Assembly: GCA_964354065.1 (NCBI GenBank)
Contig: CAYGYF010000002.1
Coordinates: forward strand, 1-41,169
Source of the DNA: an uncultured Dehalococcoidia bacterium
GTDB lineage: Bacteria > Chloroflexota > Dehalococcoidia > SM23-28-2
DNA length: 41,169 bases
Direction: 5' to 3'
Of the stretch, positions 6,801 to 27,776 are shown piece after piece. Below the pieces are notes generated by a model. The model had not been told where the DNA came from, made no database searches, and saw only the letters and a program-made list of their open reading frames with translations. A program made the position numbers and the translations under genes. Each line of letters opens with the position of its first letter. Within the stretch, counting starts at the first letter, position 1.

Positions 6801-6882
6801 CATCGCGGGTTCGGCCGCGTTGCTTCGAGCGGTAGGAGGGGAGATGTCCGTAGTCCAGTCGGACTGCACCGTCCGTCACCCC

Positions 6883-7041
6883 TGTGGGGTGCCAAAATGT
6901 CATCCGTATCCGGAGGGTTGACGCAGTGAGCTGCTCGGGCCAGCCTCGAGGCACTATGCCCTCGTCGAGACACAGCACCACGAGTACGAGTGGGTGGCTG
7001 CTTGACCTGCAAAGAGACGGACGGAATATTGGCACCCCACA
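6883..7041 (+). mobile_element. 159-bp IS-derived miniature element (IRL + transposase 3' end + IRR)
   Basis: IRL is TGTGGGGTGCCAAAATGTCATCCG at 6883. The reverse complement of the right end is TGTGGGGTGCCAATATTCCGTCCG, ending at 7041. The interior encodes '...HHEYEWVAA*', the conserved C-terminus of rve-type (IS481/IS3-like) transposases. Confidence 0.7.
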
Positions 7042-7075
7042 ACTGCGCGTTCACGGGAGGTTGTTGGACGCTCAG

Positions 7076-7185
7076 CGATCTCCTGCTCCGCGGGCAGGCT
7101 CTCGAGGTCCATCGGACTCTGCGCAAGAGAAGCCGCGAGGCCTGCGGTTCATGCATCGAAGATTGAGCCACCTGCGGAGGCACCC
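7076..7185 (+). repeat. dispersed repeat 'R2', copy A (full length)
   Basis: GATCTCCTGCTCCGCGGGCAGGCTCTC, then 41 nt, then CGGTTCATGCATCGAAGATTGAGCCACCTGCGGAGGCAC. The end boxes are almost identical to the 14518 copy. Confidence 0.75.
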
Positions 7186-7269: not shown

Positions 7270-10023
7270 CTAGAAACGGTTCGGATTTGTGGTTTCCGGA
7301 GCCGGAAGCAGTGTGATCTTGCTGGACGGACTTCCGCCACAGCGGCGCCCGAACCACGCCTTCGTTCCTTCACCCTTGGAGAATATGAGGATCTGGACTT
7401 CGTGGCTCAGCTCGAGGAGCAAGTCAAGGAAGTTCTCAACCCGTATATCGTCCAAATCCACTAAAGGATCGTCCAGGATCAGTGGGATCGGCTCACCCAT
7501 CGAGCTCATGTGTTGGGCAAGGCCTACCCGCAGGAGCAGGTATGCGGCAGCGCGGGTACCCCTGCTGAGCAATTCGACGTCTTCGAGGCGGCGAGTCTCC
7601 GGAACCTCTGTGGTCAGACGTAGGGTGGAGGGATCCAGTAGTACCCGTTGGTACCTGTTCCCGGTGACGCGTGCCAAACCTCCGCTCAGAAAACGCCCAA
7701 CACTCGGCGCGAAGTCGCGATGCGCCTCCGACATGGCCTGGCCGATAACCTCGATGGCGATGGTCAGCTCCTCTCCAAATCTTTCGAGCATGGAGACTTG
7801 CTTTTCGTAGCGCTCGAGCTCCTCTTCGACTTCGGCCCTAGGCCGCAGGCGAGCAAGCTGTGTGTCGATCGTGGTTCGGAGCCCGGTGATGCGGACTTCG
7901 CTTTGATGTAGGTCATCCTGCCGCCGCGAGAGGAGCTCCTCTAAGCTCTCCCGGCTTTCGCTGGTTCGCGCACCCTCCAGAGACGGGTTGCTCGTTCGCA
8001 AGTGCTCAAGCTCCCTTCGCACCTTGTCGAGGGCCGCCTGAAGCTCGCTCGGAGACTGACCCTGCAAGACGATTCCTTTTCTTTCCTCGCTGTCGCGCAA
8101 CCCTTGTCTAGCTTCGTCGTGGAGGCGGCGCCGGCGGCAACCCTCTTCGAATGCCTTGACCAGGTCTTCGAGTGCACCACTCCTCCCAGTGGTTTGGCGG
8201 AGCTGCTCCCCGAGTCCGGACTCCAATCTCCCTAGTCGCTCCTGCTCTCTTTCAAACCGTCCAACCGCCTCCTGAAGCGATGACCGTTCACTCTCCAGAG
8301 ACTGAAGCTGGCTTGCGATGGTCGCGAGTTCGCGGTGGCCCTCCACCCGCTCACAGAACACACGGTACGCTCGCTCCAGGTCGGAGAGGTCGTCCACAAG
8401 GTCCTCAAGCGCCTCACGGAGCCTCTCTGCGGCGAGTTCAGCATTGGACTTCGCAGCCTCAGCCTCGGCTTTCTCCCCCAAGTACTTCCCGACTAGCGGG
8501 GCAATTTCCAGGAACCGCCTGTGACGGTCGAGGACGGCGCTCACCTGATCGGGGCTAAGCGATTCTGGGTGAGCACTTCTCTGTGACTCCTCCGGCTGCG
8601 CCTCCTCGTCCTCCTCAACGTGAACTTCGGTCTCGCGGCGCATCACTCTGCGGAGAACCCAGCGAGCCAGCGCGATCAGCTGCCTCCAGACCCAGCGCAG
8701 CGCCATCATTATGGCGCGACCGACTGCGCGCAGAGCTCGCTGAAACCCACCGACGGGCGGGGCGCGAAGGAGTCGGGTGAGACGCTCCAGGTCGTCTTCC
8801 GACAGCCTCCCGACTTCGCCTTCGAGGCGCTCGTACTCATCCACCAACTCTTGAGCTACCGCCGCAGCGCCGAGGCGCTTTTCCGCGTCCACTGCTACGG
8901 CGCGCAAGCCTTGCCAGGAGGTGACCAGCTCATCGATATCGTTCTTCCGGCCGATGGGGTAGTCACGCAAATGAGCGAGGTCGTGCTCTTTGCGGTCGAG
9001 CTCTTCCTTTTGCCTACCCAGACTCATAAGCCGCGCCCGGGTCTTGTCGATCTCCGCCCGGTCCTTCTCCAGTCCCTCCCGCAGGTCGCAGATGCTCCCC
9101 CAGGTCTTGAGAACGCTGTCTCGTTCGTCCGCTGGAAACTCGGCGAAGTCCCTGTTTTTGTCGACCTCTGCCTGAAGGCGCTCATCCTGGCGGGCCAGCT
9201 CCTCGAGCCGGCCGAGGCGGTCCTCGAGGTCGCCAGCCTCAGCGCTGAGAAGAAGGTAGCGGGTTCGAGAAACTGCTTCTCGCAACTCTCGGGCCCCCTC
9301 AATCGCCTCCTCCAGGCTAGCCGCACGGTCCGCCAGTTCTCCCCGAACCCCATCTATTTCCCGCAGTTCGCGTTCAGCCTCGACGACGCGGCCCCGGGTG
9401 ACAGGAAGCGGCGCAGCTCTGGACCTAGGCGTGCCCACCTGCTCCCGCAGGATGCGGTCCAAGCGACCGATCGCAGACTGCGCTGAGATGTCCCGGCGCG
9501 CCGTGTCGGCTAGGCTGATGATGGTGTCGCCTATTTCCTGTGGCGAGGCTCTACTTTCTTCCGCGATCTCAAACAGCTCGCCCTGAGAGACAAATGCGCA
9601 TGCATCGAACACCCTCTTTGTCATGCCGATTTGTCGCCGCGCGAAGGGCACATTTCCGTGCCGGCCGCGTCCAAAGTCATCCGTCACGTCTCTACCGACC
9701 TCTAGGTCCCAAAGGCTGGTAGGCACGTCCGAGCTGCTGAAGTCTCGCTGCACCCGGTACCTGACACCGTTCTCGAGCTCATACTCTAGCGTCCCGCCGT
9801 ATGGTGGCCCACTCCAGGGGACCAAGCGCTCGCGAGCGGCGTTCTCCGACGCCCGCGCTCGGTCGCTTTCGTAGAAGCCGTAGAGAAGGGCGAATATCGA
9901 CTGCTGTAGTGTGGACTTCGCCGACTCGTTGGGCCCGTGGAAGAGGTGCAACCCCGGCGCTATGTCTTCCCGGAAGTCCCGCAGGCACCCGAAGCCTTCT
10001 ATCTCGATCCGCGTGATTCTCAC
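7270..10023 (-). CDS. SbcC/YhaN-like SMC-type ATPase with long coiled coil
   Basis: N-terminus 'MRITRIEIEGFGCLRDF...GPNESAKST' gives Walker A at ~9910-9936. The middle is a long E/R/L-rich coiled coil. C-terminus 'PLILDDPLVDLDD' is Walker B/D-loop-like. GTGA start/stop overlap with the upstream phosphoesterase gene. Confidence 0.8.
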   Translation of the reverse strand: MRITRIEIEGFGCLRDFREDIAPGLHLFHGPNESAKSTLQQSIFALLYGFYESDRARASENAARERLVPWSGPPYGGTLEYELENGVRYRVQRDFSSSDVPTSLWDLEVGRDVTDDFGRGRHGNVPFARRQIGMTKRVFDACAFVSQGELFEIAEESRASPQEIGDTIISLADTARRDISAQSAIGRLDRILREQVGTPRSRAAPLPVTRGRVVEAERELREIDGVRGELADRAASLEEAIEGARELREAVSRTRYLLLSAEAGDLEDRLGRLEELARQDERLQAEVDKNRDFAEFPADERDSVLKTWGSICDLREGLEKDRAEIDKTRARLMSLGRQKEELDRKEHDLAHLRDYPIGRKNDIDELVTSWQGLRAVAVDAEKRLGAAAVAQELVDEYERLEGEVGRLSEDDLERLTRLLRAPPVGGFQRALRAVGRAIMMALRWVWRQLIALARWVLRRVMRRETEVHVEEDEEAQPEESQRSAHPESLSPDQVSAVLDRHRRFLEIAPLVGKYLGEKAEAEAAKSNAELAAERLREALEDLVDDLSDLERAYRVFCERVEGHRELATIASQLQSLESERSSLQEAVGRFEREQERLGRLESGLGEQLRQTTGRSGALEDLVKAFEEGCRRRRLHDEARQGLRDSEERKGIVLQGQSPSELQAALDKVRRELEHLRTSNPSLEGARTSESRESLEELLSRRQDDLHQSEVRITGLRTTIDTQLARLRPRAEVEEELERYEKQVSMLERFGEELTIAIEVIGQAMSEAHRDFAPSVGRFLSGGLARVTGNRYQRVLLDPSTLRLTTEVPETRRLEDVELLSRGTRAAAYLLLRVGLAQHMSSMGEPIPLILDDPLVDLDDIRVENFLDLLLELSHEVQILIFSKGEGTKAWFGRRCGGSPSSKITLLPAPETTNPNRF

Positions 10024-11147
10024 CGGGGCCGCACCTCCTGGCCCGAAAAGGCTTGCAGCCCGTACCGTAGAGCGTTCTCAAGGATCTCCTTTTCGGCCCC
10101 TTGCGCCCTGTCGATTCGCTCCTGCATAAGCCGGATAAACGCTCCCCGGGTGGTGGCCTCCTCTCGCATTTCCTCTAGGTTGAAGGCGGCCTGGGTCTGA
10201 TCGGCGATCTCTAGGTAGCGGAAATGCTCGGCCGTCGCGGAGAGCAGACCTGCTACGTCGATATCCAGTTCGGGCTCGGCCTGACCTACGAGCAGCACCC
10301 TGACGATATCGGGTGCGGGCGAGCTCTCGCCAGCGAGACGCGCAATGGTCTCGCGGACTTGGTCCGATGTTGACATGCCAGCCACGTCGATGCGCTCCGT
10401 GCGGTAGGAAACCTCGTTGATCTGGACTGGCTCCGCGGTGGCGCTGTGTTCACCCACGCTCAGCAGAAGGACGTAGTGGGGCCCCTCCTCATGGAATCCC
10501 AGCGGTTCGGGATTGCCCGGGTACCCATAGAGAGGTGAGTCAGCCGGGAAAAGACGCATGCCGTGATAGTGTCCGAGCAGCACAAAGGCGGCGCCGCACC
10601 CCTCCACATCGCTCACCTCGAAGGGACAGTGGGCCGCCTTTCGTTCAGGTACTGCTGAAACATCCGAGCCATGAAGCAGGGCGATGGCCGTCTCCGAGCG
10701 ATCCAGATGGAGATCCCGCAGGAGATTGTCCCGGACGGCGGGGCTGTTGTGCCCGACGCCCCAGACTGCTACGCTGCCCGCAAGCGCGACTGGCTGCCAT
10801 TGCATGCTGTCGAAGATGTGCACGTTGGCGGGCCAATCGAGCCGCCGATAGAGGCTATCCGGAACGTATCGGTCGTGGTTGCCTGGAGCGATCAAGACGG
10901 GCCGCGGCGCCAACCGCTCGAATTGGCTCACGATGAAACGGCCTGTGTCAAGCGTGACTCGGTCGTGCTCGTAGAGGTCGCCCCCAACGGTGACAGCATC
11001 GACGTTGCGCTCGAGGGCCAGATCGACGATGCGGCGGAGGACGCTCCGGAGTTCTTCACGCCGCCTACTGGCCTCGCTCGAGGCCATGCCAACGCCTGCA
11101 AACGAGCAGTCTAAGTGAACGTCAGCGAAGTGCAGAATCTTTACCAC
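10020..11147 (-). CDS. SbcD/Mre11/YhaO-like metallophosphoesterase nuclease
   Basis: 'VKILHFADVHLD', 'GGDLYEH', 'GNHD' (10872-10883) and 'LLHGS' are calcineurin-like phosphoesterase motifs I-IV. GTG start. Confidence 0.85.
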   Translation of the reverse strand: MVKILHFADVHLDCSFAGVGMASSEASRRREELRSVLRRIVDLALERNVDAVTVGGDLYEHDRVTLDTGRFIVSQFERLAPRPVLIAPGNHDRYVPDSLYRRLDWPANVHIFDSMQWQPVALAGSVAVWGVGHNSPAVRDNLLRDLHLDRSETAIALLHGSDVSAVPERKAAHCPFEVSDVEGCGAAFVLLGHYHGMRLFPADSPLYGYPGNPEPLGFHEEGPHYVLLLSVGEHSATAEPVQINEVSYRTERIDVAGMSTSDQVRETIARLAGESSPAPDIVRVLLVGQAEPELDIDVAGLLSATAEHFRYLEIADQTQAAFNLEEMREEATTRGAFIRLMQERIDRAQGAEKEILENALRYGLQAFSGQEVRPR

Positions 11148-11394
11148 TGCCCCAGTCCTGACCAGGAGCGCATCAGTCCGGCGCCTGATACTGCGGATGC
11201 ATCGTATCGCGCCACCCTTTTTGGCCTAGTTCAGCGACCTCGTCTGCCCTCTCCGATTGGCCCCCTGCGACGGTCTTTCGTTCGCACTTCTCTTGGCGGA
11301 TCCGTGCTGCACCTTGCGGGCTACTGTTCGGGGTCTTTCGGCGCCATCGCATCTACCAGGCAGGGATAGAATATCACGTTGGAAGTCGGCGAAG

Positions 11395-11422
11395 CACGCA
11401 GTTCGTGCATCGAAGATTGGAC
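11395..11422 (+). repeat. dispersed repeat 'R2', 3'-core-only copy B
   Basis: CACGCAGTTCGTGCATCGAAGATTGGAC matches the 3' box of the 7076 and 14518 copies. No 5' box upstream. Confidence 0.55.
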
Positions 11423-11544
11423 GATCCCGCCGCGGGTCGTGACGAGCTTCTCAACTGCTGCAGGTGCCACTCTGCGGCATTGGCCGCCACACCGACAAAG
11501 ACGGCCTGGGCCTACCGACAGCGGCGATCCGCCCGACGGCCTGC

Positions 11545-11789
11545 TGTGGGGTGCCAAAACCTCATCCGTATGTAGAGCGTTGCTCCGCTGGCTCAGGCAG
11601 CTCAACGTGTCAACGGTGCAGATACGGATAGAGTTTTGACACCCCACACCCATGGGGCCGCCTCTTCGGGCTGCCCCGCCATCGGTGGGGCGGATCAGCG
11701 CTCGACCGGTCCTGGGTGGTCTGCACCACGAGTACGATTGGGTGGCCGCTTGATCAGGGAAGACGCGGATGGAATATTGGCACCCCACA
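11545..11789 (+). mobile_element. composite IS remnant: 104-bp palindromic mini-element (11545-11648) plus a 141-bp transposase 3' end with IRR (11649-11789)
   Basis: TGTGGGGTGCCAAAACCTCATCCGTAT at 11545. The reverse complement of 11622-11648 is TGTGGGGTGTCAAAACTCTATCCGTAT, an IRL-type end in inverted orientation. 11649-11789 encodes 'RPVLGGLHHEYDWVAA*' and ends with GGAATATTGGCACCCCACA, the same IRR as at 7041. Confidence 0.7.
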
Positions 11790-12141
11790 GCCGCCTTGAC
11801 CGGCGTCGTCTCAATTGTCCCTCAGATAGCCCCTTGGGGGCCGCCTTCATTCTCTACTCCAGCAGCGCCGCCACCTTGCGCCACCCCTTGTCCTCCTCGC
11901 CCTCCAGGCGCCCCGGTCTTCCCGCAGGCTCGGCTCAGCTGATCTCGATGGGAAACTTGTGGGCGGCGGAGTCGGCCAGCCCCCTGGCTCAGTGGACGTA
12001 GCGCTTAAAAGGCCACACCCTCTAGCCCTCCTTCGCAGCAGTCCAGGATGCGGTCACGCCTAGCCGCTCCTCGCCCATACTCCATGGTTCGGGCGGCGTG
12101 CGGCTGGTTCCACCACGTGTGAGCGGTTCCAGGCGGCTGCC

Positions 12142-13152
12142 CTAACCATTGCCTACTCCTGCCACCTCCGGTTGCTTGTAGCGTTCAGCGTTGTCACGAC
12201 AGTGCTGCCGAACGGCCTCCACCCAGCGTTGATACCAGTACCAAAGCCCGCCCAAATCGACGCCGTAGCCCTTGCCCGGATTTTTTGCGTCCAGCGACCT
12301 CCATAGAAGGGTATGCTGGTGCGGACCGAAACCGATATAGCCCTCTTCATGCATGAGTCGCAGGACATCCTTCCTGAGATACTTGGGCTTTTCGACCTCC
12401 TTTTGGACCCAGTATTGCTTGTCGATTTGCTGGGCAAGTTCTGAGCTAGGGGAAATGAACTCGACCACCTGATCAGCCTGGCCTGCCTTGCCGGTGAGTT
12501 TTTGCGCAAATAGGAGTCGATAAGAGTATTGCGGACTATTGAATTCGTCCTGGGTCAGTTGGCCGTCGAAGTCCGCGATGTAAGCTCTTAGACGTTCCGG
12601 GATCTCTTCGGCTGCTGCCAACACCTCCACCTGGTCCCTCGACAGTTCGACGAGCTGCAGACTATAAGTTAGATGCGCGTCTAACCCATATTGCTCGCCA
12701 AACAGTTCCTTCAAATAACGGTTGTAGTTTAGACAGCACGCTTGATAGCGGCCGCTCAGATAGGTGTCCAACCTCAATGTCATCTGGTGCTCGATCTCGT
12801 GCCTGAGCCCGATCAGGAACTTGAGATTGTTCCTCGTGTTCTTGTCCAAGGGGCACCCGTCATCATCAAGACAGCGTTCGAGCTCCCAGTACTTGTACGC
12901 GCCTCGTTTGGTCCGATCGAAGCGCCGCCTCTGGGTGCGTAGGGTGAAGTAGCGGTACTCGACTCCTACCCGGCGGTAGTACGCGTGTAGCAGATACGTC
13001 CAGGCGATGACCATTAAGACAATGAAGGTCTCCGACTTGAACTGGGTCAGCGGGCTGTTGAACGTCTGGACAGCTGACAGGGCCGCCTCCTGTGACTTCG
13101 CCAGAAGTTCAGCCCGGATCGAGTAGACGCGACGGTGACGCTTCATGGACAC
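12142..13152 (-). CDS. DUF3644-like protein with R-x4-H motif (possible HEPN-type)
   Basis: 336-aa ORF at ~53% GC (hand count 12481-12580), against ~65-70% nearby. 'KSQEAALSAVQTFNSPLTQFKSETFIVLMVIAWTYLLHAYY' resembles the DUF3644 N-terminus as I recall it. 'LIGLRHEIEHQ' (12787-12804) is an R-x4-H motif. Start is GTG 13152 or ATG 13146. Confidence 0.55.
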   Translation of the reverse strand: MSMKRHRRVYSIRAELLAKSQEAALSAVQTFNSPLTQFKSETFIVLMVIAWTYLLHAYYRRVGVEYRYFTLRTQRRRFDRTKRGAYKYWELERCLDDDGCPLDKNTRNNLKFLIGLRHEIEHQMTLRLDTYLSGRYQACCLNYNRYLKELFGEQYGLDAHLTYSLQLVELSRDQVEVLAAAEEIPERLRAYIADFDGQLTQDEFNSPQYSYRLLFAQKLTGKAGQADQVVEFISPSSELAQQIDKQYWVQKEVEKPKYLRKDVLRLMHEEGYIGFGPHQHTLLWRSLDAKNPGKGYGVDLGGLWYWYQRWVEAVRQHCRDNAERYKQPEVAGVGNG

Positions 13153-13234
13153 GCCTCAGCGTAAGACGTGTCCGTCAGACGGACGGCTGCCTCCTTGTCC
13201 ACGTACGGCTCGTTCCATGTGACAGTTGGTAAGC

Positions 13235-14188
13235 TCACTTCGCGCCCTCCGAAGGCCCGAAATCGGTCTTGAGCTGGGAAGCCAGATGGCCAAGAAGCTC
13301 GAGAAGGCGCTCGACCTCGTCGCGATCTAGAGGGTAGAGCCGTCCCTTGAGATGCGAATACCCTGGTACCTTGGCAACAAACTCTTCGTCAACGACGCCT
13401 AGGTTGTGCTCGTAGATGTGGCGCACCTGGAACAGGCGGACCAGATCGTCGAAGCCGTCCGCTCCAAGGCGTGCACCTACCCCAACCCCTCTCGCCTTCT
13501 CGAGGGAACGGTCTAGAGCTGCTATGTTCTGGAAAAGATTCTTGGGCCTGTCCGGGAGGATTTCCGGCCGCGCCTGGCGCAGCTTCTTGCCAAGGGCGTC
13601 AAACGCCGCCACAGCGCTGCCAAGGGCGTCCACCAGGATTGCCTTCACCAATTCCTGGTCGTCAGCCGTCTCCGGGAGGTCAAGCAGATGCAGCCGCCGG
13701 CGACAGACCTCTAGGCACGCATCGAAGACTTCGAATGCATTGAGCTGGCCGCAGTCCGGACAGAAGGCGAAGATGCCAAAGACAGCGAATTCGAGCCCGC
13801 AGGTGTTGCAGGTGACCGGCGTCTCGACATCACTTTCGCGATAGGAGTAGATGCGAAAGCTAGGCGTGCTGACCGAGAATTTGACAGTGATCAGCGAGTT
13901 CCGTGAGGGCCGATTTAAGCTCTCTATGCTGCGTCTGAAGTCCTGGAGCATGGGCTCCAGGACTTGCTTGGCCACAATACTCTTCGCGTATTCCACTTGG
14001 TCCGGCGTGAGGAAGTCGGACGAGTCTGCTCGCGTCCCGCAGTAGGGACATCCGCAATCCTCGATCGGAAGGCCAGTTCCGGGTTTGAGTTTGAAATACT
14101 GGCCGCACTCCGGCGAGGGGCATCGCCGCCCCACCATGCCTTTCTCGTCGGTTGGGAGGCTCACTCGGATAGTCCTGTCACCCATCAT
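13235..14188 (-). CDS. double zinc-ribbon protein with C-terminal R-x4-H (HEPN-like) helical domain
   Basis: 317-aa ORF. It has two CxxC...CxxC units: 'CPSPEC...CPYCG' and 'CNTCG...CPDCG'. C-terminal helical half has 'FQVRHIYEHNLG' (13406-13423). No family recognised. Confidence 0.6.
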   Translation of the reverse strand: MMGDRTIRVSLPTDEKGMVGRRCPSPECGQYFKLKPGTGLPIEDCGCPYCGTRADSSDFLTPDQVEYAKSIVAKQVLEPMLQDFRRSIESLNRPSRNSLITVKFSVSTPSFRIYSYRESDVETPVTCNTCGLEFAVFGIFAFCPDCGQLNAFEVFDACLEVCRRRLHLLDLPETADDQELVKAILVDALGSAVAAFDALGKKLRQARPEILPDRPKNLFQNIAALDRSLEKARGVGVGARLGADGFDDLVRLFQVRHIYEHNLGVVDEEFVAKVPGYSHLKGRLYPLDRDEVERLLELLGHLASQLKTDFGPSEGAK

Positions 14189-14517
14189 TCCCGGCTATCC
14201 CCTGCGGCAGCGGGAGATGCAGCCACCTTTACACGCGCCTGCGCAATCCCTCAGCCTCTATCTCCAGAAGCCCGCCCAGCCGCCGCGCCGCAACGACCCG
14301 CACGGGCTCAGGCCAAAACGGCCCTTCGAGAATGGCACCAGGCGTCGGAAGTCCGTTATTGCCCATCGGTGATCAGTGGGACACGGCCGTTGTCGCATTC
14401 GGATTATACCCATTGGCCCCAAAAGATGATAGCGACCAGAACAGAGTTTCGTGGCCTCGCCACGATTGTACCCGCTGGCGGGCCGCCTAACGGAAGTTGC
14501 GAGCCCCTCGACGTTGG

Positions 14518-14605
14518 CCTGCTCCGCGGGCAGGCTCTCCCCGACCACAGGACGTGGCACAGGGGGAGTCGGGAGGCTGGCGGTTCGTACATCGAAAGAC
14601 TGGAT
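14518..14605 (+). repeat. dispersed repeat 'R2', copy C (full length)
   Basis: CCTGCTCCGCGGGCAGGCTCTC, then 41 nt, then CGGTTCGTACATCGAAAGACTGGA. Its 3' box ends ~35 nt from the DUF499 stop codon (gene 3' side). Confidence 0.75.
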
Positions 14606-14639: not shown

Positions 14640-17600
14640 TTAGTAACCATCGCCAAATTCTAGCTTCGGGCAGGCCTTCTTTAGCTCTTCGTTCAGTCTC
14701 ATGAGTTGGGCCGCCATCGGCTGGACTCCGTCGCCTAGTTCTAGCCGCAAGAAGAAGCGGAGATTTAGGCCAGCCCCGGTCTTGATGATGTCCGCCAGGC
14801 CATCAACGAGGTCTTGGAGCTCGGCCGGCTCGAGTTCGGCCTCTGTCGTAAAGCCTCGCGGGGGCGGTGGAGGCGGCGGTGCTTCTGTCGGCACGCTGAG
14901 CCGCACCAACGGCGACCCGGACCACTCGCACGGCCATGGCCCGGAGTCCGGCGTGCGCTCCAGATAGCGGGCCCGAATGGCGGAATCGATAGCCGACCGG
15001 ACGGTTGTCCAGGGAAGTGTCTTGCCAACTGTGACCGACAGCGCATCGCTGATGGCTGCTGCAGTGGTGATAGGTTCCCCCCAGGCAGCCTCAAGATTCT
15101 GGGGTAGGACAGCCGTCGCCAGGAGCTCTGCTGGCGGCGGGTGTAGCAGAGCGGTATCACTCAGAACACCGTAGGGGATGTCCTCGCGGTAGATGCTGGC
15201 CGGACCCGCCGTGAGCCACACCGCCCCCGCCCTGACGCCCTCCTGGATGGCGTTCTCGACCACCTCTTTCGCTGCCTTGGGAACAGGGAATGCTTCCTCG
15301 TAGCCCTCGCGCTGCACCTTGCTGACATGCGAGCCGTCGAAGAAGGCCAGCACCTGCCCCACCGAGATCGACCCTCCATCTTCGGGCCAGAGTCCTGGCA
15401 GTGCGCCAGGCACGAGGAGCGTGCCGTCAAGGTCAGTGAGTTCGGCCGCTTCGGGCAGCACCACTTCCAGGTCTCGCTCCCGAAGGTCGCCCTCCGTCGG
15501 CTGAGCCCGCCAGATGGTGCGCACGCTCTTGTCAGGACGGGGAAGCCGCAGCACAAAGTACCCCTGTTCAACACCGAGAGCGAGTGTGTCGGCGATGTCC
15601 TTCTGCCGGAGCATCTTCGGCAAGTGCGGGAACTGAGCGAACGCGGTCACCAAGTCGCTGGCCCGACGTGATGTCTCCTCTTCTCGCCAGAGCGCATAGG
15701 GGCCATCGGGCAGGAGGGCCTCCGGGCTGATAGCGGACTCCTGGATGCGTGAGCGCTTGTCGTTCTTCACAACTTCAAAGATGGGCTCGCCGGTTGCCGT
15801 TACTCGGAAAGCCTCCACCTCGCCCTTGGCCGCAACAGTGACCACAATGCAGTAGGTCTGGACGAGGGCGTCGGGGATCCTCTTCCGCGCCTCATCGGTG
15901 TAACCGGACAGAAGCACCTTGCGCACATCGTCGAAGTCTTTCGCCTCGGGGAGATTCCGAACTTCCTCCCAGCCCATGTAGTCACGCACTCGACTGCGGA
16001 CCAGTTCGAGCCCCTCTCTGGAAGGGACGACCAGCAAGATAGCGTTGCGATAGACGCGCGGACGATCTGGGCCGGTCGTTTCATCGATGAACCGTCGGGA
16101 CTCAGCGCTCGGCTTGCCAGCCTCCGAGGCTGCCCGAGGCCCAAGGACCACGTAGTGGAACTCGCCGTCATCCTGAACGTCTCGGGGATGGTCGGGCAGG
16201 TTGTGCACCCGGGCACCTGCTGCCGCTGCGCCGGCAGTCAAACGCTTCTCCCTGGCAATCCAATCCCGCAGGGTCATTTCGATGACCTCCGGGGGCCCAA
16301 CACGGGCGCAAGCGTCACTGTGCATTTGGCGCAGGTTGGGTCTGGTGCCAAGGCGCCACCACTTGGGAAGCTCCAGCACAGCAGCCCCGGTTCCATCGGT
16401 GGCCCCGGCGATCGCCGCTTCGTCCAAGAAGTAGGAGACCTCCGTCCAGCGACGCAGCGCCTTCTCCAGCTCGATCTTGTCTGGCTTGGCAGCTCCTAGT
16501 AGCACGAGCAAGTCGCGGGTGAGGGCTCGCTGGCCGATAGGCTGGGAATGCAGGAATGTCGCCATCACGGCTTGTTCCACTTCGCGCCCCTTGAGCGCCG
16601 GGAACTCACCCTGAGTGTCCCTCGTCTTGGCCAGCTCCCCTTCCAAGATAGCCGCCCATTCCTGGCGCTTGCCCTCGTACGCCTCTGAAGCCGCAATGGA
16701 GGTCAACTCGCGGGCGGCTTCGGAAAGGCCAGGGCTGCCGGGCGTGTTGAGCAGGACGTTGGCCCCCACAAGTGGCGACGTGTCCCACTTCTCGGCGGCG
16801 CGCAGGGCCATAGCGAAGGTTCGGAGCACGCCTCGGGTGCGCTGAAACCCCTCCAACTGGGTCCATTTGGTGTACAGGGCTTCCGTCAACTCCGGATGGA
16901 ACGGGTAGCTGGCGAGGTAGCGTTCCTCTTCTGCCTGTCGGTTCTTGCGGGTACCCTCGTCCAGCACCGAGATGCCCTCCAGTGCTGCGACGACGTGGGG
17001 CAGGAAGCGTTCCCGGTCGCGGATCGACTCAGCCGTGAAGAACCGTCGCCGGAGGATCTCCGCCACATCTTGCTTCTCGACGGGTTGGACACCCTCCTCC
17101 CTCTCGCGGCGGAAGATAGCGTACAGCTCTTGGGCGATCTCCTTCCCAAGCTCGTCGCTCTTACGCGGCTCAGTGGCGAGGAGGGACGCCACGATGCAGG
17201 CTCGATCCACCTTGGTGGCCGCCTGAGTCAACGCCTGAAAGAAATCCTGGAGGCGGTGCCGCCATTGCGTATCCAGCCCCACCTTCTCGCGGGCGTACAT
17301 CAGCACTTCGTCGATCAGGATGAGGGTGGCGAGCCCGTCGCGAGCCGGCCACTCCAGAAGGTCGCGCACCAGGTTCTCCGCTGGCGGTGTCTCTCGTTCC
17401 TCATCCTTCTCCTCGGCGTTAAGCAGGCGCAGGCCGTCGGCGCCGGCGATCTGGAACGCGAGCACGCTCCACGGGTGCCACAAACGCCGCGCCTCTCCAT
17501 TCGGGCCGTGCACCTCCATCCCCTTTTCCACATCCAGCTTGTCGAAGCAAAGGGAGACGATGCGGGCCTTCGGCGGCGTGATGCCTCCAGCGTGCTGCCG

Positions 17601-17951
17601 GAATTCATGGACCGCCGGAAGGTCCGGCAGGTTATCGGGGTCGTTGACCAGGTGATAGAGAGTGATAAGGGCGTGGGTCTTGCCGCCGCCGTAGGTCAGC
17701 TCCAGTTGGCGCACCGCTTTCTCGTTCTTGCCTGCCAGCCTCTGAAGGACGTCCTTGACGAGCTCCCGCAGGTTGAAGGTAGGGTAGGTCAGGGCGAAGA
17801 ACTCGGAGGGCTGCTGGTAGATCGGGCGCGCTCGCCCCATGACGACGTCGTACAGGTCGGCGGCGAAGATGCTGAGGGTAAGCTCGCCGGAGCGGAGGTC
17901 ATCACGGAGCGTTACGACTTGGTGCCAGGGGGTCGTGGCTGAAGAACTCAT
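14640..17951 (-). CDS. DUF499-family AAA-type ATPase (anti-phage-associated)
   Basis: N-terminus 'PWHQVVTLRDDLRSGELTLSIFAADLYDVV...ELTYGGGKTHALITLYHL' gives Walker A at 17673-17690. 'LILIDEVLMY' is Walker B. The 1103-aa size is typical of the family. Confidence 0.85.
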   Translation of the reverse strand: MSSSATTPWHQVVTLRDDLRSGELTLSIFAADLYDVVMGRARPIYQQPSEFFALTYPTFNLRELVKDVLQRLAGKNEKAVRQLELTYGGGKTHALITLYHLVNDPDNLPDLPAVHEFRQHAGGITPPKARIVSLCFDKLDVEKGMEVHGPNGEARRLWHPWSVLAFQIAGADGLRLLNAEEKDEERETPPAENLVRDLLEWPARDGLATLILIDEVLMYAREKVGLDTQWRHRLQDFFQALTQAATKVDRACIVASLLATEPRKSDELGKEIAQELYAIFRREREEGVQPVEKQDVAEILRRRFFTAESIRDRERFLPHVVAALEGISVLDEGTRKNRQAEEERYLASYPFHPELTEALYTKWTQLEGFQRTRGVLRTFAMALRAAEKWDTSPLVGANVLLNTPGSPGLSEAARELTSIAASEAYEGKRQEWAAILEGELAKTRDTQGEFPALKGREVEQAVMATFLHSQPIGQRALTRDLLVLLGAAKPDKIELEKALRRWTEVSYFLDEAAIAGATDGTGAAVLELPKWWRLGTRPNLRQMHSDACARVGPPEVIEMTLRDWIAREKRLTAGAAAAGARVHNLPDHPRDVQDDGEFHYVVLGPRAASEAGKPSAESRRFIDETTGPDRPRVYRNAILLVVPSREGLELVRSRVRDYMGWEEVRNLPEAKDFDDVRKVLLSGYTDEARKRIPDALVQTYCIVVTVAAKGEVEAFRVTATGEPIFEVVKNDKRSRIQESAISPEALLPDGPYALWREEETSRRASDLVTAFAQFPHLPKMLRQKDIADTLALGVEQGYFVLRLPRPDKSVRTIWRAQPTEGDLRERDLEVVLPEAAELTDLDGTLLVPGALPGLWPEDGGSISVGQVLAFFDGSHVSKVQREGYEEAFPVPKAAKEVVENAIQEGVRAGAVWLTAGPASIYREDIPYGVLSDTALLHPPPAELLATAVLPQNLEAAWGEPITTAAAISDALSVTVGKTLPWTTVRSAIDSAIRARYLERTPDSGPWPCEWSGSPLVRLSVPTEAPPPPPPPRGFTTEAELEPAELQDLVDGLADIIKTGAGLNLRFFLRLELGDGVQPMAAQLMRLNEELKKACPKLEFGDGY

Positions 17952-18607
17952 TGGCTTACCTCCGTCCTAGACGGTTGAGTACGGTGCTGCGCTATTGGCA
18001 GCAGCGCCTGCACGAGCGGGAGAAGCAATTGATACGCGGTCCCCAGGGTAGACTGGTCTGCCAACCGATGCGGGCCCTTGATGGCGTGGAACTGGTTGTT
18101 TCGCACAGTGTACAGCAGGGAGGATGCCACCTCTTGGAGCGACCTCCTCTTGTCTTCGGTGGATGCCAGTGCAGGCGCTACAGCACTGACGTGGGCCACA
18201 CAGTCGCGAGGATCCTTCCCGAGGAAGTAGTCTCTCATGTTCACGATCCCTTGGACGGGTGCGCCCGCGTCCGGCCCTACTACGAATTGCTCCGTGGGCG
18301 CGTCATTGAGGCTGCTGATAAGCTCCACGTATTCCTCGGTGTAGAGCCTTTCGATGTCGTCCGTGGGAACTTGATCCAAGGCGGCCCGTATCTTGTCCGC
18401 CTCCCTGCCGTCGAACCGAGCAAGGAGGCAGTAGAGGTTGTTGAAGGCGACGAAGAGGTACAGGTAGGCAGTAAACGGGTCCGGATCCCTGTTCGTTCGG
18501 TTGAAGAACCGGTGGGCCCGTCGGTAGCTTTCCCGGGTCGACTGCAGATATGCATCGCCCCAATAGGCAATGCGCCGCGTCTGCAGGTCTTCAGCGCGTC
18601 GGTTCAT
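17948..18607 (-). CDS. small alpha-helical protein with RNxxxH (HEPN-like) motif
   Basis: Start set to ATG 18607, which overlaps the methyltransferase stop as ATGA. Its own stop overlaps the DUF499 ATG as ATGA (17948-17951). 'LYLFVAFNNLYCLLA' and 'LLYTVRNNQFHAIKG' (18087-18104) fit the HEPN two-helix plus Rx4-6H pattern. Confidence 0.65.
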   Translation of the reverse strand: MNRRAEDLQTRRIAYWGDAYLQSTRESYRRAHRFFNRTNRDPDPFTAYLYLFVAFNNLYCLLARFDGREADKIRAALDQVPTDDIERLYTEEYVELISSLNDAPTEQFVVGPDAGAPVQGIVNMRDYFLGKDPRDCVAHVSAVAPALASTEDKRRSLQEVASSLLYTVRNNQFHAIKGPHRLADQSTLGTAYQLLLPLVQALLPIAQHRTQPSRTEVSQ

Positions 18608-21600
18608 TCCACCCTCTCGGCAGTGTCTGTCATCAGCCGCATCTGCGGATGGGCGCCGCGGGCGGTCACGTGGTTCATGATCGTCTCCAATAGCGCCCGC
18701 TCGTCCGGCTGGTTGTCTTTGCGCGCCAGCTCGATCAGGGCCTGGAGCAGACGCGGGAAGAGGGCGTTTCCGCGAAGGCCCCGGTCCTCGATGTAGGCGT
18801 CCACCTTCTGGACGTCTCCCTCCCGCCAGAGGCGCATGATGCGGTGCACCTGGTCGATGAGCGGCGCCGGCCGGCCTTCCGCGTCCAATCCCAGCGACTT
18901 GCCACGGCGGTGGTCCCAGCGCTTGAGCCGGACCTTGCTGCCGCTGCCCCGCTCCTCCGGCTCCTCCTCGGCGTCTTCGCTCTCCTCTTCTTCCTCCTCT
19001 TCGGTCTCGGCGGAGCCGCTGGTGAAGGCGACGAGTTCGTAGCGGTCGGCCAGGTCGCGGTCGCGGAGGTTGCACGACTGGGCATAAAGGATGCACGCTC
19101 CGACCGGCGCCTCGGTGAAGCCGAAGTCGTGGCGGTGGAGTAGGTAGTAGATGGTGGCGGTGTCCAGGCCGGCGGCCTCCTCGCTCTCGCCGTCGCGGGA
19201 GAGGACGCGGCCGACCACGTAATCCACCACGATGCGCCGGACGTGGTGCAGGAACTCCGAGACGGTGAGGATGGCGTTGGGCTCGTCCGCCTTCTTGACG
19301 ACGGGGTGCTTGCTGTAGGCCTCCAGAGCGGGGCCGGTGGCGGCCCAGACGAAGTCCGGCCCGCGGATGCCGGCGTCCCAGAAGTCTCGCAGGCGGTCGT
19401 AGATCTTGGAGCGCATCTCCTCCAGCACCTGGTTGTCCCAGCCGGGCCGCGCCGTCTCCGGCCGCTTCCGGCAGACGAGCCAGACGGAGGAAGCGAGGGC
19501 GGCTGAGGTCAATGCCCTTGTTCGGCTACTGAGTTCTGTTTGAATGGGCCAGCTTCCATCAACCACGAAGCCAGCTCGGATGATCGAAGAAACTAGGGTT
19601 TCCCACGCATTTGGCTGCTTGTTGGCGAAAGCAACGACCAGGACGCCCTGAGGTGTCAGCAAGTCCTGGCAGACCCGGAAAGCACGGAACATGCCTCCTT
19701 CATAGGCAGCTCTGGACTCCTCAGCGTCTCCACCGAAGCGGCTAGCATCGTCAATGAGTTCACCATCCTGTCTTTGGTGATCCCACTTGGGGCCCAGCGT
19801 CTCAGAGAACGCTGTATCCATTTCGGGAGATATGCCTGCAAGGGTCCGGCGGAGCCAGATGTAGAAGAAGTCCATCGCGTCGGAATACGGAATGGCGTCG
19901 TAGTAGGGAGGGTCAGTTACGACGACGTCAAGTTCCTCAGTGGCATTAGGGAGCAGAGCAGATTGACAACGGGCTTTGGGCGTAATGCTGCTTGTTGACG
20001 CCGCTCTGAGTGATGTACGGACAGCAGCGACCGTCGATTCCAACATTGAAAGGTAGCTTCCCGCATGCTGCCCAGGGGGCACGCTCTCAGCAAAGTCCCA
20101 AGTGATCGGCAATGCATAGCGAGAGAACACCTGGCGGATTTGTTCGTTGCCAACATGCCAGGTGCACAAAGTGCATGCCAGGTGGACGGCTTTTGAGAGG
20201 TTGGCCGTCAGATACGCGACGACCGCCTCCACCCACTCCGGCGGATAGCCCTCGGCGCGCATGGCGTCGCGGGCGGCGCGGGTGTGCTTCACGAAGGTCC
20301 CCAGGGCAAGGAGCTGGCGCGGGGTGAACAGCTTGTACCACTGGTCGAAGCCGTATAGCGGCACGCGGAAGCCCAGGGCCTCCTTGGTTGGCAGGGGCTC
20401 CGTCGGCAGGCCAAAGGGCACGTCCCGGAAGGTCGCCTCCACGCAGCCGCCGGCATCCTCGGCGGCGCGCAGTTCGTCGGGCGCCGGCAGGCTGTACTCT
20501 TTGCCCTTGGCGCCGTCCACCACCACAGACGTCATCTGCGTGCCCAGGCGGCCGGCCAGCCCTTCGGCCCGGATGTCATCCAAGGTCATGGCCACGGTGC
20601 CGGGGCCGCCGCAGACGGGGCACCAGGCGCCGGAGCGGGACATGGTGCCCTGGCCCACGCGGCGGTCGTGAGCCCGCTGCTGGGCGGCGTTGCCGCCCAC
20701 CTTCGGCTCGTCCACCACCTCAAAGTCCACGCCGGAACGGTCGGCCCGCGGGCGCATCTTCAGCCGGAAGCGTTTCTTCTCCTTGTGGCAGAGCCAGAGG
20801 GTCTTGAGGAGGGGCAGGGTGGCGCGACAGTTCTTACAGGTGACGGTGCGGGCCCACAGGTAGGCCACGGTGGTCTTGTCGTCCACGGTGGGGTAGAAGC
20901 GTTCCAGATCGGCCCTGGCCCGCTGGAGCACCCAGTGGCCGCAGGCGCGCACGTGCCAGGCCAGGTGAGCCTCCGGCGCCTCCAACATCGGTGCTTGGTG
21001 GCCTTCGTCCTGACGGCCGCGGCCCTTCTTCGGCCCGCGGGTCTGCTTCAGGAACTCCGCCATGAACTCCGGCGACTCCAGGGCGAACCGGGGCAGCGGC
21101 CTGGTCTGGCCGGCCAGTCGCTGCGGGTACTCGAGGGTGCATTTGAGGATGAACCAGGCGACGGGGTTAATGTCGATGGCGGTGGCCTCGCAACCCAGGC
21201 GCATCGCCTCCAGGGGGATGGCCCCGCCCCCGGCGAAGGGGTCGAGGACCCGCGGCGGGCGGCCGTAGACCTTGCGGATCTCCTCCCGGAAGAACTCCAG
21301 GTCCGGCCCGTTCTCGCGCCCCCAGTGCAGGATGCCGCCGACAGTCTCCTCCTTCACCACGGGCACGTCACGGCCGCCGACCCGCTTCGTGGTGTTCTTG
21401 GTCACGACCTTGCCGGCCAGACGCTCCAGGAGGCGCTGGCGCTCCGTGTCGTTACCGGGGTCAGGCAGCAGCGTAGCGATGAGGGCTGCGCGGCAAGCGG
21501 CCAGGGGTCGCCGCGCCGGCCAGATGTGGAGCGTCGAGATGTGCCCGTGGCGCACGTTCTTCTCGTGCACGGAGTCGAGGGACGCCTGCTTCAGGGGGAA

Positions 21601-21651
21601 GGCGACTTCGATGAGGCGCGGGCAATCGTCAGTCATGAGGTGCACCTTCAA
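18604..21651 (-). CDS. DUF1156-domain DNA methyltransferase (N6-A/N4-C type, anti-phage-associated)
   Basis: N-terminus 'LIEVAFPLKQASLDSVHEKNVRHGHISTLHIWPARRPLAACRA' is the DUF1156 signature. 'LDPFAGGGAIPLEA' (AdoMet motif I) is at ~21211-21249. 'VVVTDPPYYD' (motif IV) has DPPY at 19903-19914. There is a Cys cluster 'CKNC...CPVCG'. Confidence 0.85.
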   Translation of the reverse strand: MKVHLMTDDCPRLIEVAFPLKQASLDSVHEKNVRHGHISTLHIWPARRPLAACRAALIATLLPDPGNDTERQRLLERLAGKVVTKNTTKRVGGRDVPVVKEETVGGILHWGRENGPDLEFFREEIRKVYGRPPRVLDPFAGGGAIPLEAMRLGCEATAIDINPVAWFILKCTLEYPQRLAGQTRPLPRFALESPEFMAEFLKQTRGPKKGRGRQDEGHQAPMLEAPEAHLAWHVRACGHWVLQRARADLERFYPTVDDKTTVAYLWARTVTCKNCRATLPLLKTLWLCHKEKKRFRLKMRPRADRSGVDFEVVDEPKVGGNAAQQRAHDRRVGQGTMSRSGAWCPVCGGPGTVAMTLDDIRAEGLAGRLGTQMTSVVVDGAKGKEYSLPAPDELRAAEDAGGCVEATFRDVPFGLPTEPLPTKEALGFRVPLYGFDQWYKLFTPRQLLALGTFVKHTRAARDAMRAEGYPPEWVEAVVAYLTANLSKAVHLACTLCTWHVGNEQIRQVFSRYALPITWDFAESVPPGQHAGSYLSMLESTVAAVRTSLRAASTSSITPKARCQSALLPNATEELDVVVTDPPYYDAIPYSDAMDFFYIWLRRTLAGISPEMDTAFSETLGPKWDHQRQDGELIDDASRFGGDAEESRAAYEGGMFRAFRVCQDLLTPQGVLVVAFANKQPNAWETLVSSIIRAGFVVDGSWPIQTELSSRTRALTSAALASSVWLVCRKRPETARPGWDNQVLEEMRSKIYDRLRDFWDAGIRGPDFVWAATGPALEAYSKHPVVKKADEPNAILTVSEFLHHVRRIVVDYVVGRVLSRDGESEEAAGLDTATIYYLLHRHDFGFTEAPVGACILYAQSCNLRDRDLADRYELVAFTSGSAETEEEEEEESEDAEEEPEERGSGSKVRLKRWDHRRGKSLGLDAEGRPAPLIDQVHRIMRLWREGDVQKVDAYIEDRGLRGNALFPRLLQALIELARKDNQPDERALLETIMNHVTARGAHPQMRLMTDTAERVE

Positions 21652-26500: not shown

Positions 26501-27124
26501 GACTTCCCGGCAATACAAAGAGAACAGAGTCCGCATCTCCCGCTTCCAGTTCCCCACGAGGCCCGCCGGAGACACGATGAGCACACGACGGACTAGGTGT
26601 CGGCTAAGCATCTCCCGTATGTACAGGCCCGCCATGATGGTCTTTCCCGCACCGGCGTCGTCAGCGAGGAGCATGCGCAGGCGGGGCTGCGACAGCATGG
26701 CCTGATAGACGGCGATGATCTGATGGGGGAGCGGATCGATGATGGCGGTCTCCGTGCCGAAGATGGGGCTGAACAAGTGACCGTAGCGAAGCCTCTCTCC
26801 CTCAACGAAGAGACGGACCAGATCAGGTTCGGCTCTGAAGTCGGGGGTCGACGCGACGCTCGCTGCGGAATATACGCCTGCGGGCTCATGCACCATGGCA
26901 CGCTGAGATCTGGTGAACATCGCGCGCGAGGAGGTTGCAGCGGCGGCTGCGAGGGTGCTCAGCGCCTTGATGGCCAACCTATTGGGGCGGGATTGGCCGT
27001 TTTCCCACCGACTCACGGTGACGACGGTCACGCCCAAGCGGTCAGCGAGCTGGCTCTGCGTCAGACCGAGCTCCGCTCGAAGAGCTTTGATCCACTCAGG
27101 CGAACCGACAACGGCGCTGACCAT
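23582..27124 (-). CDS. XRE-HTH / SNF2-like helicase / DUF3883 (PD-(D/E)xK-like) fusion protein
   Basis: Start set at ATG 27124 ('[44 protein letters not shown]', an XRE HTH). '[10 protein letters not shown]' is at 26639-26662 and 'FDEAHKL' at 26338-26358. '[23 protein letters not shown]' is motif VI. C-terminus '[36 protein letters not shown]' is DUF3883-like. Confidence 0.8.
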   Translation of the reverse strand: [1180 protein letters not shown]

Positions 27125-27320
27125 TTGGCCCCGCCAGGAAAACCGACTTAACAAACTATAACACCGGCTCGCCGGCGATTCAACCGGTGGCCGTCCAATA
27201 AGGTTGCAGACCCCCCAACGATGGCCTGGATCAGGGCAGGGGCTCTGGGCGAGGAGACAAGGGGCACGAGCGCCTGCTCGATGAGCATCGGCTCTCAGAG
27301 TGAGACGGACGCCTCTCGCG

Positions 27321-27776
27321 TCATAGTCCCATCTCGCTACCGTCGGCGAAGAGGGCCTTTCGTTGGCCATGTGACAAGTAGATGATGACCTCCCACATGA
27401 GGCGATACGAAAGCCTCATGGAAAGAAAGGCATCAATCCCCTCAAGCAGATCGTTGCGGTTTCCCTTCGGGGAGTGGATGACAACGATGCCAGGCCGGTC
27501 ATGGAGCAGACCGTCTTTCCAGACCCTTCTGGCCCGCCGCCAATCCCTAGTCACGAAGACTAGAGCCATCTGCCGTATCCATGCCAGAAAGGCCAGGTCG
27601 TCGGACGTGTTCACCGGGGCGTTCTCTGCGGTCACGACGGGATAGCCCAACTCGGCCAGGCGCTCGGCAACGGGCAGCAAGCCCTGGTCCGTGCAGAACG
27701 GCAGACGCTTTTGCTTGCCAGCCCGACGTTTCCTGAAACGTGAATATTCCTGTTTCTTGAGTTCTAGCTTCCCCAC
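27321..27776 (-). CDS. PIN-like (DUF5615/Mut7-C-like) protein
   Basis: 'FCTDQGLLPVAERLAELGYPVVTAENAPVNTSDDLAFLAWIRQMALVFVTRDWRR...GIVVI' matches the D-x-N...T-x-D layout of DUF5615-type PIN-like proteins. GTG start. No DUF433-like partner seen upstream. Confidence 0.5.
   Translation of the reverse strand: MGKLELKKQEYSRFRKRRAGKQKRLPFCTDQGLLPVAERLAELGYPVVTAENAPVNTSDDLAFLAWIRQMALVFVTRDWRRARRVWKDGLLHDRPGIVVIHSPKGNRNDLLEGIDAFLSMRLSYRLMWEVIIYLSHGQRKALFADGSEMGL

Follow-up and report, generated by a model that had tools for sequence, protein, structure and literature searches.

We consider it probable that two adjacent genes, here called A and B, in a 41,169-nt stretch of DNA from an uncultured Dehalococcoidia bacterium (Chloroflexota, lineage SM23-28-2; contig CAYGYF010000002.1 of assembly GCA_964354065.1, positions 1 to 41,169; hereafter the window) are two independent single-gene defense candidates, each encoding a latent HEPN ribonuclease, that lie side by side by chance at the 3′ end of an operon for the Hma defense system. 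Both genes are intact open reading frames (ORFs) that keep all the residues that are invariant in their families. An initial annotation of this DNA, made from its sequence without database searches, had proposed a role as a defense or abortive-infection RNase, which is reasonable given the HEPN motifs of the two proteins and the position of their genes in a defense island beside Hma. The features of the two genes are as follows.

13235–14188, minus strand: gene A, an intact ORF of 317 amino acids (aa) with an ATG start, encoding a double zinc ribbon and a C-terminal HEPN-like domain
14024–14137, minus strand: zinc ribbon 1 of A, residues ~18–55, with C23, C28, C47 and C50 and an invariant YFK-x3-GTG loop between the knuckles
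13739–13825, minus strand: zinc ribbon 2 of A, residues ~122–150, with C127, C130, C143 and C146, running into the first HEPN helix
13259–13738, minus strand: C-terminal helical HEPN-like domain of A, residues 151–310
13406–13423, minus strand: predicted catalytic motif of A, RHIYEH (Rx4H), R256–H261
13147–13234, minus strand: A–B spacer, 88 nt if B begins at ATG 13146
12142–13152, minus strand: gene B, DUF3644, an intact ORF of 336 aa from a GTG start, or of 334 aa from ATG 13146
12562–13110, minus strand: N-terminal HEPN domain of B, residues 15–197 counted from the GTG (Pfam extent)
12787–12804, minus strand: predicted catalytic motif of B, RHEIEH (Rx4H), R117–H122
12157–12390, minus strand: small conserved C-terminal domain of B, residues ~255–332, helix-helix-beta hairpin-helix, Trp-rich

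Gene A encodes a double zinc ribbon and a HEPN-like domain

Gene A matched no Pfam, NCBIfam or PHROG family, and its homologs, which form 592 clusters at 90% identity and are nearly all 305–320 aa long, are also without a Pfam domain. An exhaustive profile search recovered 2,279 representative clusters at E ≤ 1e-3 (1,064 at E ≤ 1e-10), with members spread over many bacterial phyla and also found in Methanosarcina and Methanoperedens. Two genes of the family (L063, 727–1725, and L068, 7962–8936; L numbers are our handles for the loci examined) are broken by an in-frame stop and could be pseudogenes, sequencing errors or instances of recoding.

In an alignment of 35 sequences that are 42–82% identical, eight of the 11 cysteines of A, those that make up the two ribbon pairs, are invariant. 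The initial annotation had seen two CxxC...CxxC ribbons, and there are indeed two, although the first knuckle is Cx4C (CPSPEC) rather than CxxC. The AlphaFold2 (AF2) model of A (predicted local distance difference test, pLDDT, 89.2; predicted TM-score, pTM, 0.73) has a long helix separating the two zinc ribbons and a helical domain following them, with four short strands in ribbon 1 and strands at residues 123–126 and 133–136 in ribbon 2. Some family members have weak matches to the Pfam models Zn_ribbon_6 and HypA at ribbon 2, and the N-terminal half of A with both ribbons (residues 2–148) aligns with positions 1–149 of the 152-position PADLOC model PDC-M14A (E=1e-15). The C-terminal half had no PADLOC match, and a Pfam search with the C-terminal domain alone returned nothing.

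What, then, is the C-terminal domain of A? Its modeled helices span residues 151–170, 178–206, 237–261 and 289–310, and the Rx4H motif falls at the end of the third. Invariant among the 35 sequences are F196-D197-x2-G200-K201 in helix 2, N217-x-F219-Q220 in an insert (NLFQ, 217–220) and Q254-x-R256-H257-x3-H261, and N262 is conserved in at least 90% of them. The HEPN domains described by Anantharaman et al. (2013; PMC3710099) have an Rx4-6H motif at the end of helix 3 with a polar residue (N, D or H) after the arginine, an acidic residue in helix 2 with K or R four residues on, and, separating helices 2 and 3, an insert that varies. The layout of A agrees with this description, H257 being the polar residue after R256. 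When the model was compared with the Protein Data Bank (PDB) using Foldseek, the best matches were HEPN toxins, namely HepT 6m6u (probability 0.98, TM-target 0.61), SO_3166 5yep, 7ae6 and 4nqf, with E-values of 0.09–0.5. We regard the assignment of the domain to HEPN as well supported but not proven. The only PDB match below 0.01 in sequence searches with the A-family profile was to the globin-coupled sensor HemAT (1or4, E=0.002) over “RHIxE..GViDDeFieK”, residues 212–300 (window ~13289–13555); it covers a short motif and we judged it to be probably a chance match.

Gene B belongs to a catalogued defense candidate family

The second protein is readily placed. It matches Pfam PF12358 (DUF3644) with E=5.8e-58 and 195.9 bits against a cut-off of 27.6, over profile positions 1–181 of 183, and its homologs, of which there are more than 5,020, are all PF12358, so that “DUF3644-like”, the wording of the initial annotation, was right but understated a full match. 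PADLOC identified it still more strongly as PDC-S19 (PDLC04948; E=3.8e-154, residues 3–325 against positions 2–324 of a 325-position profile). That the pair was uncharacterized and matched no named defense system therefore fails for B, a member of the known DUF3644/EC042_2821 family with a PDC-S19 match, and the second of these statements fails in part for A, given the PDC-M14A match of its N-terminal half. Other searches with B were less informative: PHROGs returned only a family of unknown function, and a sequence search of the PDB with the family profile returned nothing meaningful, the best match being EF-Ts at E=0.2.

Residues R117, E119, E121 and H122 of B are invariant across 34 aligned homologs. 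Its AF2 model has an overall pLDDT of 74.5, rising to ~90 in the N-terminal domain, where the motif lies at the end of a helix comprising residues 104–120, and the PDB entries that recur among its Foldseek matches are HEPN domains, 2hsb (probability 0.91) and 5yep, with weak E-values of 0.6–1. The two motifs had been reported initially as “VRHIYEH” in A and “LRHEIEH” in B, both are present at 13406–13423 and 12787–12804, respectively, and both fit the HEPN signature R-x4-H: each is invariant (among 35 homologs for A and 34 for B), has a polar residue after the arginine and ends a long helix. Because they are invariant across homologs, the motifs are more than chance resemblances. Structure prediction and fold comparison, which the initial annotation had proposed for both proteins, gave HEPN domains as the only recurring PDB matches, although with weak E-values.

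The C-terminal domain of B is modeled with a pLDDT of ~80–92 for residues 255–330, is covered by the PDC-S19 model and contains the invariant residues G271, H280, W284, G297, W306, Y307, W310 and C318. By eye, the model of this domain appears winged-helix-like.

The literature on relatives of B is consistent with a defense function. EC042_2821, which overlaps DUF3644, was classed as an active HEPN family whose members are fused to winged helix-turn-helix (wHTH), restriction endonuclease (REase) or Zn-ribbon domains and occur in restriction-modification (R-M) operons (Anantharaman et al., 2013). Genes lying within BREX, DISARM and type I R-M systems supplied the PDC candidates, which are predicted by that embedding, and the same study showed that HEC-08, a DUF3644 protein with C-terminal zinc fingers embedded in Hma, is anti-phage and requires the histidine of its motif (Payne et al., 2024; bioRxiv 10.1101/2024.01.29.577857). 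Plasmid RP4 is excluded by the two Ishtar proteins, whose N-terminal HEPN domain belongs to DUF4145 in one case and to DUF3644 in the second (2026 preprint). We found no paper that mentions PDC-S19 or reports an experimental test of it, and PDC-S19 is a prediction.

How closely does B resemble these precedents? It matches the whole of both the Pfam profile and the PDC-S19 model, keeps Rx4H and, as other members do, adjoins a restriction-like defense system, but it follows the last gene of the Hma operon rather than being embedded between R-M, BREX or DISARM genes. With HEC-08 it shares the N-terminal HEPN family, whose Rx4-6H histidine is needed for HEC-08 defense, and the association with Hma, whereas its Trp-rich helix/hairpin C-terminal domain has no CxxC pairs or zinc-finger cysteines, and its PADLOC matches were to PDC-S19 models only, with no HEC model among them. 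Gene A does encode zinc ribbons, but these are N-terminal and its HEPN family is different. Like B, the Ishtar systems are single genes with an N-terminal HEPN domain, which is DUF3644 in one of the two proteins, but their C-terminal domain is described as having five to seven strands and three helices, whereas that of B is modeled with one beta hairpin of two short strands. B is one more instance of a catalogued defense candidate, with nothing new beyond that.

B-family genes were seen next to a type III R-M system with an AAA ATPase, within a type I R-M operon, and on their own among housekeeping genes. A phage origin of the pair was considered and rejected, as A was absent from the viral contigs of IMG/VR and B was present in only six of them. 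There was one weak structural match between A and a viral protein (A0A8S5NVI2, E=5e-4).

Proposed mechanism and points against it

HEPN domains with an intact Rx4-6H motif are metal-independent RNases that leave 2′,3′-cyclic phosphate ends and usually act as dimers, and many HEPN proteins are latent toxins of abortive-infection, toxin-antitoxin and CRISPR systems (Anantharaman et al., 2013). By analogy, A and B would each be a latent, metal-independent HEPN ribonuclease that forms a homodimer and works autonomously. Infection or plasmid entry would act as the trigger, upon which the Rx4H site (R256/H261 in A, R117/H122 in B) would cleave cellular or invader RNA, with growth arrest or a block of phage or plasmid propagation as the outcome. 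Sensing or docking would fall to the two zinc ribbons of A and to the small C-terminal domain of B. The A family would most likely be triggered in the manner of PrrC, the enzyme being held inactive by, or monitoring, a co-translated restriction complex; the window copy of A would then be an orphan, acting alone or alongside Hma.

Several points weigh against this interpretation. The ribonuclease and defense activities of A, of B and of the A family, and their triggers, are functions that we infer, and the PrrC-like arrangement is suggested by gene position. The fold matches of both proteins have weak E-values, no Pfam HEPN model matches A, and only two of its 35 relatives touch one (HEPN_Cthe2314, E=0.004). 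In about half of the A-family loci, as in the window, type I R-M genes are missing from the neighborhood, and the order A-then-DUF3644 recurs once, in a distant member of the Chloroflexota whose spacer is of similar length (85 nt). The last two points are taken up in the following sections.

The A family frequently occupies the interval between hsdS and hsdR

A major question is which genes A travels with. We built family hidden Markov models (HMMs) from both alignments and examined 80 A-family loci taken from one-genome-per-species contigs. Of the 80 loci, 39 have type I R-M genes flanking A (25 of 54 if only loci with at least 3 kb on both sides are counted), and in 29 of the 80 hsdS ends immediately upstream of A. 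The closest relatives of the window protein (L002, 84% identical; L081, L083 and L085, 81–82%) are all found in hsdM-hsdS-A-hsdR-ygjP operons, with the A gene of L081 sharing 4 nt with hsdS on one side and 4 nt with hsdR on the other. The loci lacking type I R-M had mixed neighbors, which included McrBC, Bpu10I, BREX PglX/BrxA, other PDCs, a CBASS effector and housekeeping genes, and no recurrent partner appeared among them. In the window, neither the large ORFs scanned nor the spacers on either side of the A–B pair contained type I R-M (hsd) genes.

PrrC and RloC are anticodon nucleases, HEPN RNases with an ABC-ATPase domain that are embedded in type I R-M operons. The A family shares with them its location between hsdS and hsdR, as well as an HEPN-like domain at the C-terminus that bears Rx4H, but A has a double zinc ribbon and no ATPase match, no sequence similarity to PrrC or RloC was detected, and no type I R-M system was found for the window copy within 41 kb, among the large ORFs and flanking spacers scanned. 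Position, together with the codon overlap with hsdS and hsdR, suggests a PrrC-like arrangement for the family. Taken further, this would make the A family a widespread guard of restriction, with more than 2,000 clusters in many phyla and some archaea, in which the ribbons dock onto the co-translated type I R-M complex and the HEPN domain fires when phage anti-restriction proteins disable that complex, the window orphan having been re-wired to Hma or become autonomous. We regard so specific a proposal as possible but on balance doubtful. Since it has no R-M partner, the window copy must work alone, with Hma, or not at all.

A second explanation of the same arrangement is that A, rather than being an autonomous RNase, serves restriction systems as an accessory subunit or as a regulator. 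Its zinc ribbons would make it an adaptor that modulates the assembly or activity of HsdR/HsdS, its HEPN domain would be a non-catalytic module for binding, and the window copy would either be an orphan with no function or have been co-opted by Hma. The 4-nt overlaps in close relatives suggest stoichiometric co-production with hsdS and hsdR, the position of hsdS directly upstream in 29 of the 80 loci fits an adaptor, some HEPN domains are non-catalytic (Anantharaman et al., 2013), and the E-values of the HEPN fold matches of A are weak. However, R256, H257 and H261 do not vary even among homologs as distant as 42% identity, whereas non-catalytic HEPN domains typically lose the motif (Anantharaman et al., 2013). 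Furthermore, around half of the family is found away from type I R-M, among unrelated neighbors, and the window copy is fully intact despite having no R-M partner. We therefore think that an accessory role is unlikely.

Judged by its sequences, the A family is effectively an unnamed, putative family of R-M-embedded HEPN nucleases, which are a known kind of protein. The window copy is of interest because it draws attention to a family with many members and a wide taxonomic spread, for which there is neither a Pfam model nor a full-length match in the PADLOC release searched. The family has a confidently predicted structure, an invariant site of the HEPN type and a place between hsdS and hsdR that recurs with striking regularity. 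Should A indeed be an RNase coupled to type I restriction, then retaliation against anti-restriction would extend beyond PrrC/RloC, the cases described so far, to many phyla, and annotators would gain a new model for a common hypothetical protein.

The interval between the A homolog and hsdR also varies in content, with DUF6414 in L085 (9054–10031) and unannotated ORFs of 181 aa and 299 aa in L083 (9115–10693). This slot is a variable cargo site and could be mined for more defense candidates.

A resemblance of a different sort is that to PDC-M14, a two-gene cassette (FAM_02625>>FAM_00494) whose PDC-M14A component aligns with the zinc-ribbon half of A. Neither the C-terminal half of A nor B matches PDC-M14B, and A is a single polypeptide of 317 aa, which points to shared domain ancestry with PDC-M14 rather than to the same system.

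A and B are rarely found together

The initial annotation had treated A and B as a two-gene module, and had offered their co-occurrence in other genomes as a check. In our census this check failed, because DUF3644 adjoins an A homolog in only two of the 80 loci, one of them (L001, 99% identity) from a sister strain and the other (L007) from a member of the Caldilineaceae. The four loci with the closest other A relatives, 81–84% identical (L002, L081, L083 and L085), lack B, and three B-family loci had no A homolog. Nor do the L007 proteins behave as a conserved pair would, as their identities to the window proteins, 47% (A) and 49% (B), are matched by those of dozens of homologs that are not paired. 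The B copy of L007 (9018–9872) has RNEIERH in place of RHEIEH and ends ~50 residues early, and it may be decaying. The two genes of L007 lie between hsdS and hsdR, a passenger slot used by both families, and their adjacency is more simply read as coincidence, although this recurrence leaves a small probability of a loose functional pairing of A and B.

An origin of the two genes by duplication was also ruled out. A profile-profile comparison of the A and B families with hhalign gave a probability of 0.1%, that is, no detectable homology, and hence the similar RH-x3-H motifs reflect at most convergence or ancestry at the superfamily level.

These observations bear on the possibility that A and B form a two-component system, in which zinc-ribbon protein A would sense a nucleic acid or phage cue and either join B in a heteromeric HEPN nuclease or activate it. 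The genes are co-oriented and 82–88 nt apart with no terminator called between them, the same interspersed repeats bracket both, and the Caldilineaceae locus has the same order with a gap of 85 nt. Yet DUF3644 is absent from 78 of the 80 A-family loci, including the four with 81–84%-identical A proteins, the B family, by far the larger of the two, is found without A, and there is no co-divergence between the pairs, the L007 copy of B having an altered motif and a truncated C-terminus. Elsewhere, the slot after A holds DUF6414 or unrelated ORFs. Finally, A has a complete effector-like domain of its own, and its possession of a HEPN domain gives no indication of the arrangement proposed initially, in which the Zn ribbons would serve as the sensor for a partner RNase. 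We consider a two-component system quite improbable. More generally, the example cautions that passengers of defense islands that happen to be neighbors should not be treated as operonic partners without a co-occurrence test.

It is more improbable still, to the point that we give it little credence, that the pair is a toxin-antitoxin or addiction cassette stabilizing the island, with one HEPN toxin and the other protein its neutralizer in the manner of HEPN-MNT: although the best structural matches are HEPN toxins and the cassette is small, two-gene and repeat-flanked, neither A nor B has an MNT or other known antitoxin domain, the catalytic motifs of both are intact, and the families do not co-occur as an obligate pair would have to. 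The likeness to HepT/MntA-type toxins (6m6u, 5yep and 7ae6, the best structural matches of the two helical domains) extends to the Rx4H motif at the end of helix 3, but A and B have extra domains and no detectable sequence similarity to these toxins, and no nucleotidyltransferase (MNT) antitoxin domain was found in A, B or the spacers.

Gene starts, spacer and base composition

From the ORFs, A and B are co-oriented and lie head-to-tail on the minus strand, as had been noted initially together with a gap of 82 nt. In the spacer, read directly, there are a 6-bp hairpin (GTCCGT-ctg-ACGGAC) and, for B, the ribosome-binding site GAGG. This GAGG is 8 nt upstream of ATG 13146, and the 99%-identical database copies of B are 334 aa long. 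From the sequence, ATG 13146 is most likely the true start of B, and with that start the gap is 88 nt, not 82. Nothing resembling a terminator or promoter was called in the spacer; around the pair as a whole no sigma-70-like promoter was called and terminator-like matches were at background level.

The GC contents of A and B are 59.5% and 55.2%, the latter having been put at ~53% initially, against 62.8% for the window. Does this dip signify recent transfer? We rejected that idea, since GC at third codon positions (GC3) is host-like in both genes (71% in A, 69% in B), and the dip is therefore better explained by amino-acid composition than by recent import.

Neighboring genes and repeats

The Hma defense system lies upstream of A and B on the same strand, with the pair at the 3′ end of its operon, and the location described initially, between the SbcCD-like pair (7270–11147) and HmaC/DUF499 (14640–17951), was accurate. 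The neighboring features are listed below.

23582–27370, minus strand: HmaA, SNF2 helicase
21629–23578, minus strand: UvrD/GajB-like helicase embedded between HmaA and HmaB
18604–21651, minus strand: HmaB, DUF1156 methylase
17948–19096, minus strand: 382-aa ORF between HmaB and HmaC, without a family match
14640–17951, minus strand: HmaC, DUF499
14492–14601: repeat block between HmaC and A, repeat families D1 and D5, 71% identical to 7056–7160
11544–11790: element of ~248 nt bounded by terminal inverted repeats (TIRs), downstream of B, repeat families D2, D3, D5 and I4 (region 11389–11794)
11389–11419: 31-nt repeat core, downstream of B
7270–11147, minus strand: SbcC/SbcD-like pair (AAA_23/SMC and Metallophos), downstream of A and B
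32577–39013, plus strand: three-gene cluster of DUF6361, a PLD-like protein and a ~1,100-aa helicase
39086–40729, minus strand: phage terminase large-subunit (GpA) gene, after the DUF6361 cluster

The Hma system itself holds embedded passengers, the UvrD/GajB-like helicase and the 382-aa ORF, and the ORF calls for the latter and for HmaB share ~490 nt. The SbcC/SbcD-like pair matches the Lamassu LmuB model weakly (E=2e-16), and a Metallophos gene of a similar type is found near the type I R-M and A operon in L081 and L085; the pair may be a defense-associated Mre11/Rad50-like module rather than housekeeping SbcCD. The DUF6361 cluster looks like a further defense system, and the terminase gene suggests that a prophage or satellite is nearby. 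No Rfam families and no tRNAs were found anywhere in the window.

Interspersed repeats, located in three intergenic regions, bracket both the SbcCD-like pair and the A–B pair. Those flanking the latter had been described initially as insertion sequence (IS) remnants and repeats; interspersed repeats do flank it, but the IS identity can be ruled out, as ORFs in the spacers (11.1–12.1 kb and 14.2–14.6 kb) matched only the sister strain and the window's own repeats, and had no similarity to transposases, hsd fragments or any protein family. Further copies lie at 6882–7165. A 105-nt repeat block with the 31-nt core occurs at 7056–7160 and 14492–14596, and the TIR element is found again at 6882–7042, giving an element length of ~160–250 nt. 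From their sequences, the repeats look like miniature inverted-repeat transposable elements (MITEs) or repetitive extragenic palindromic (REP) elements. The TIR ends, CTGTGGGGTGCCAA...TTGGCACCCCACAG, gave four matches against 0.04 expected, and the TIR motif is also present in two related Chloroflexota loci, L001 and L002.

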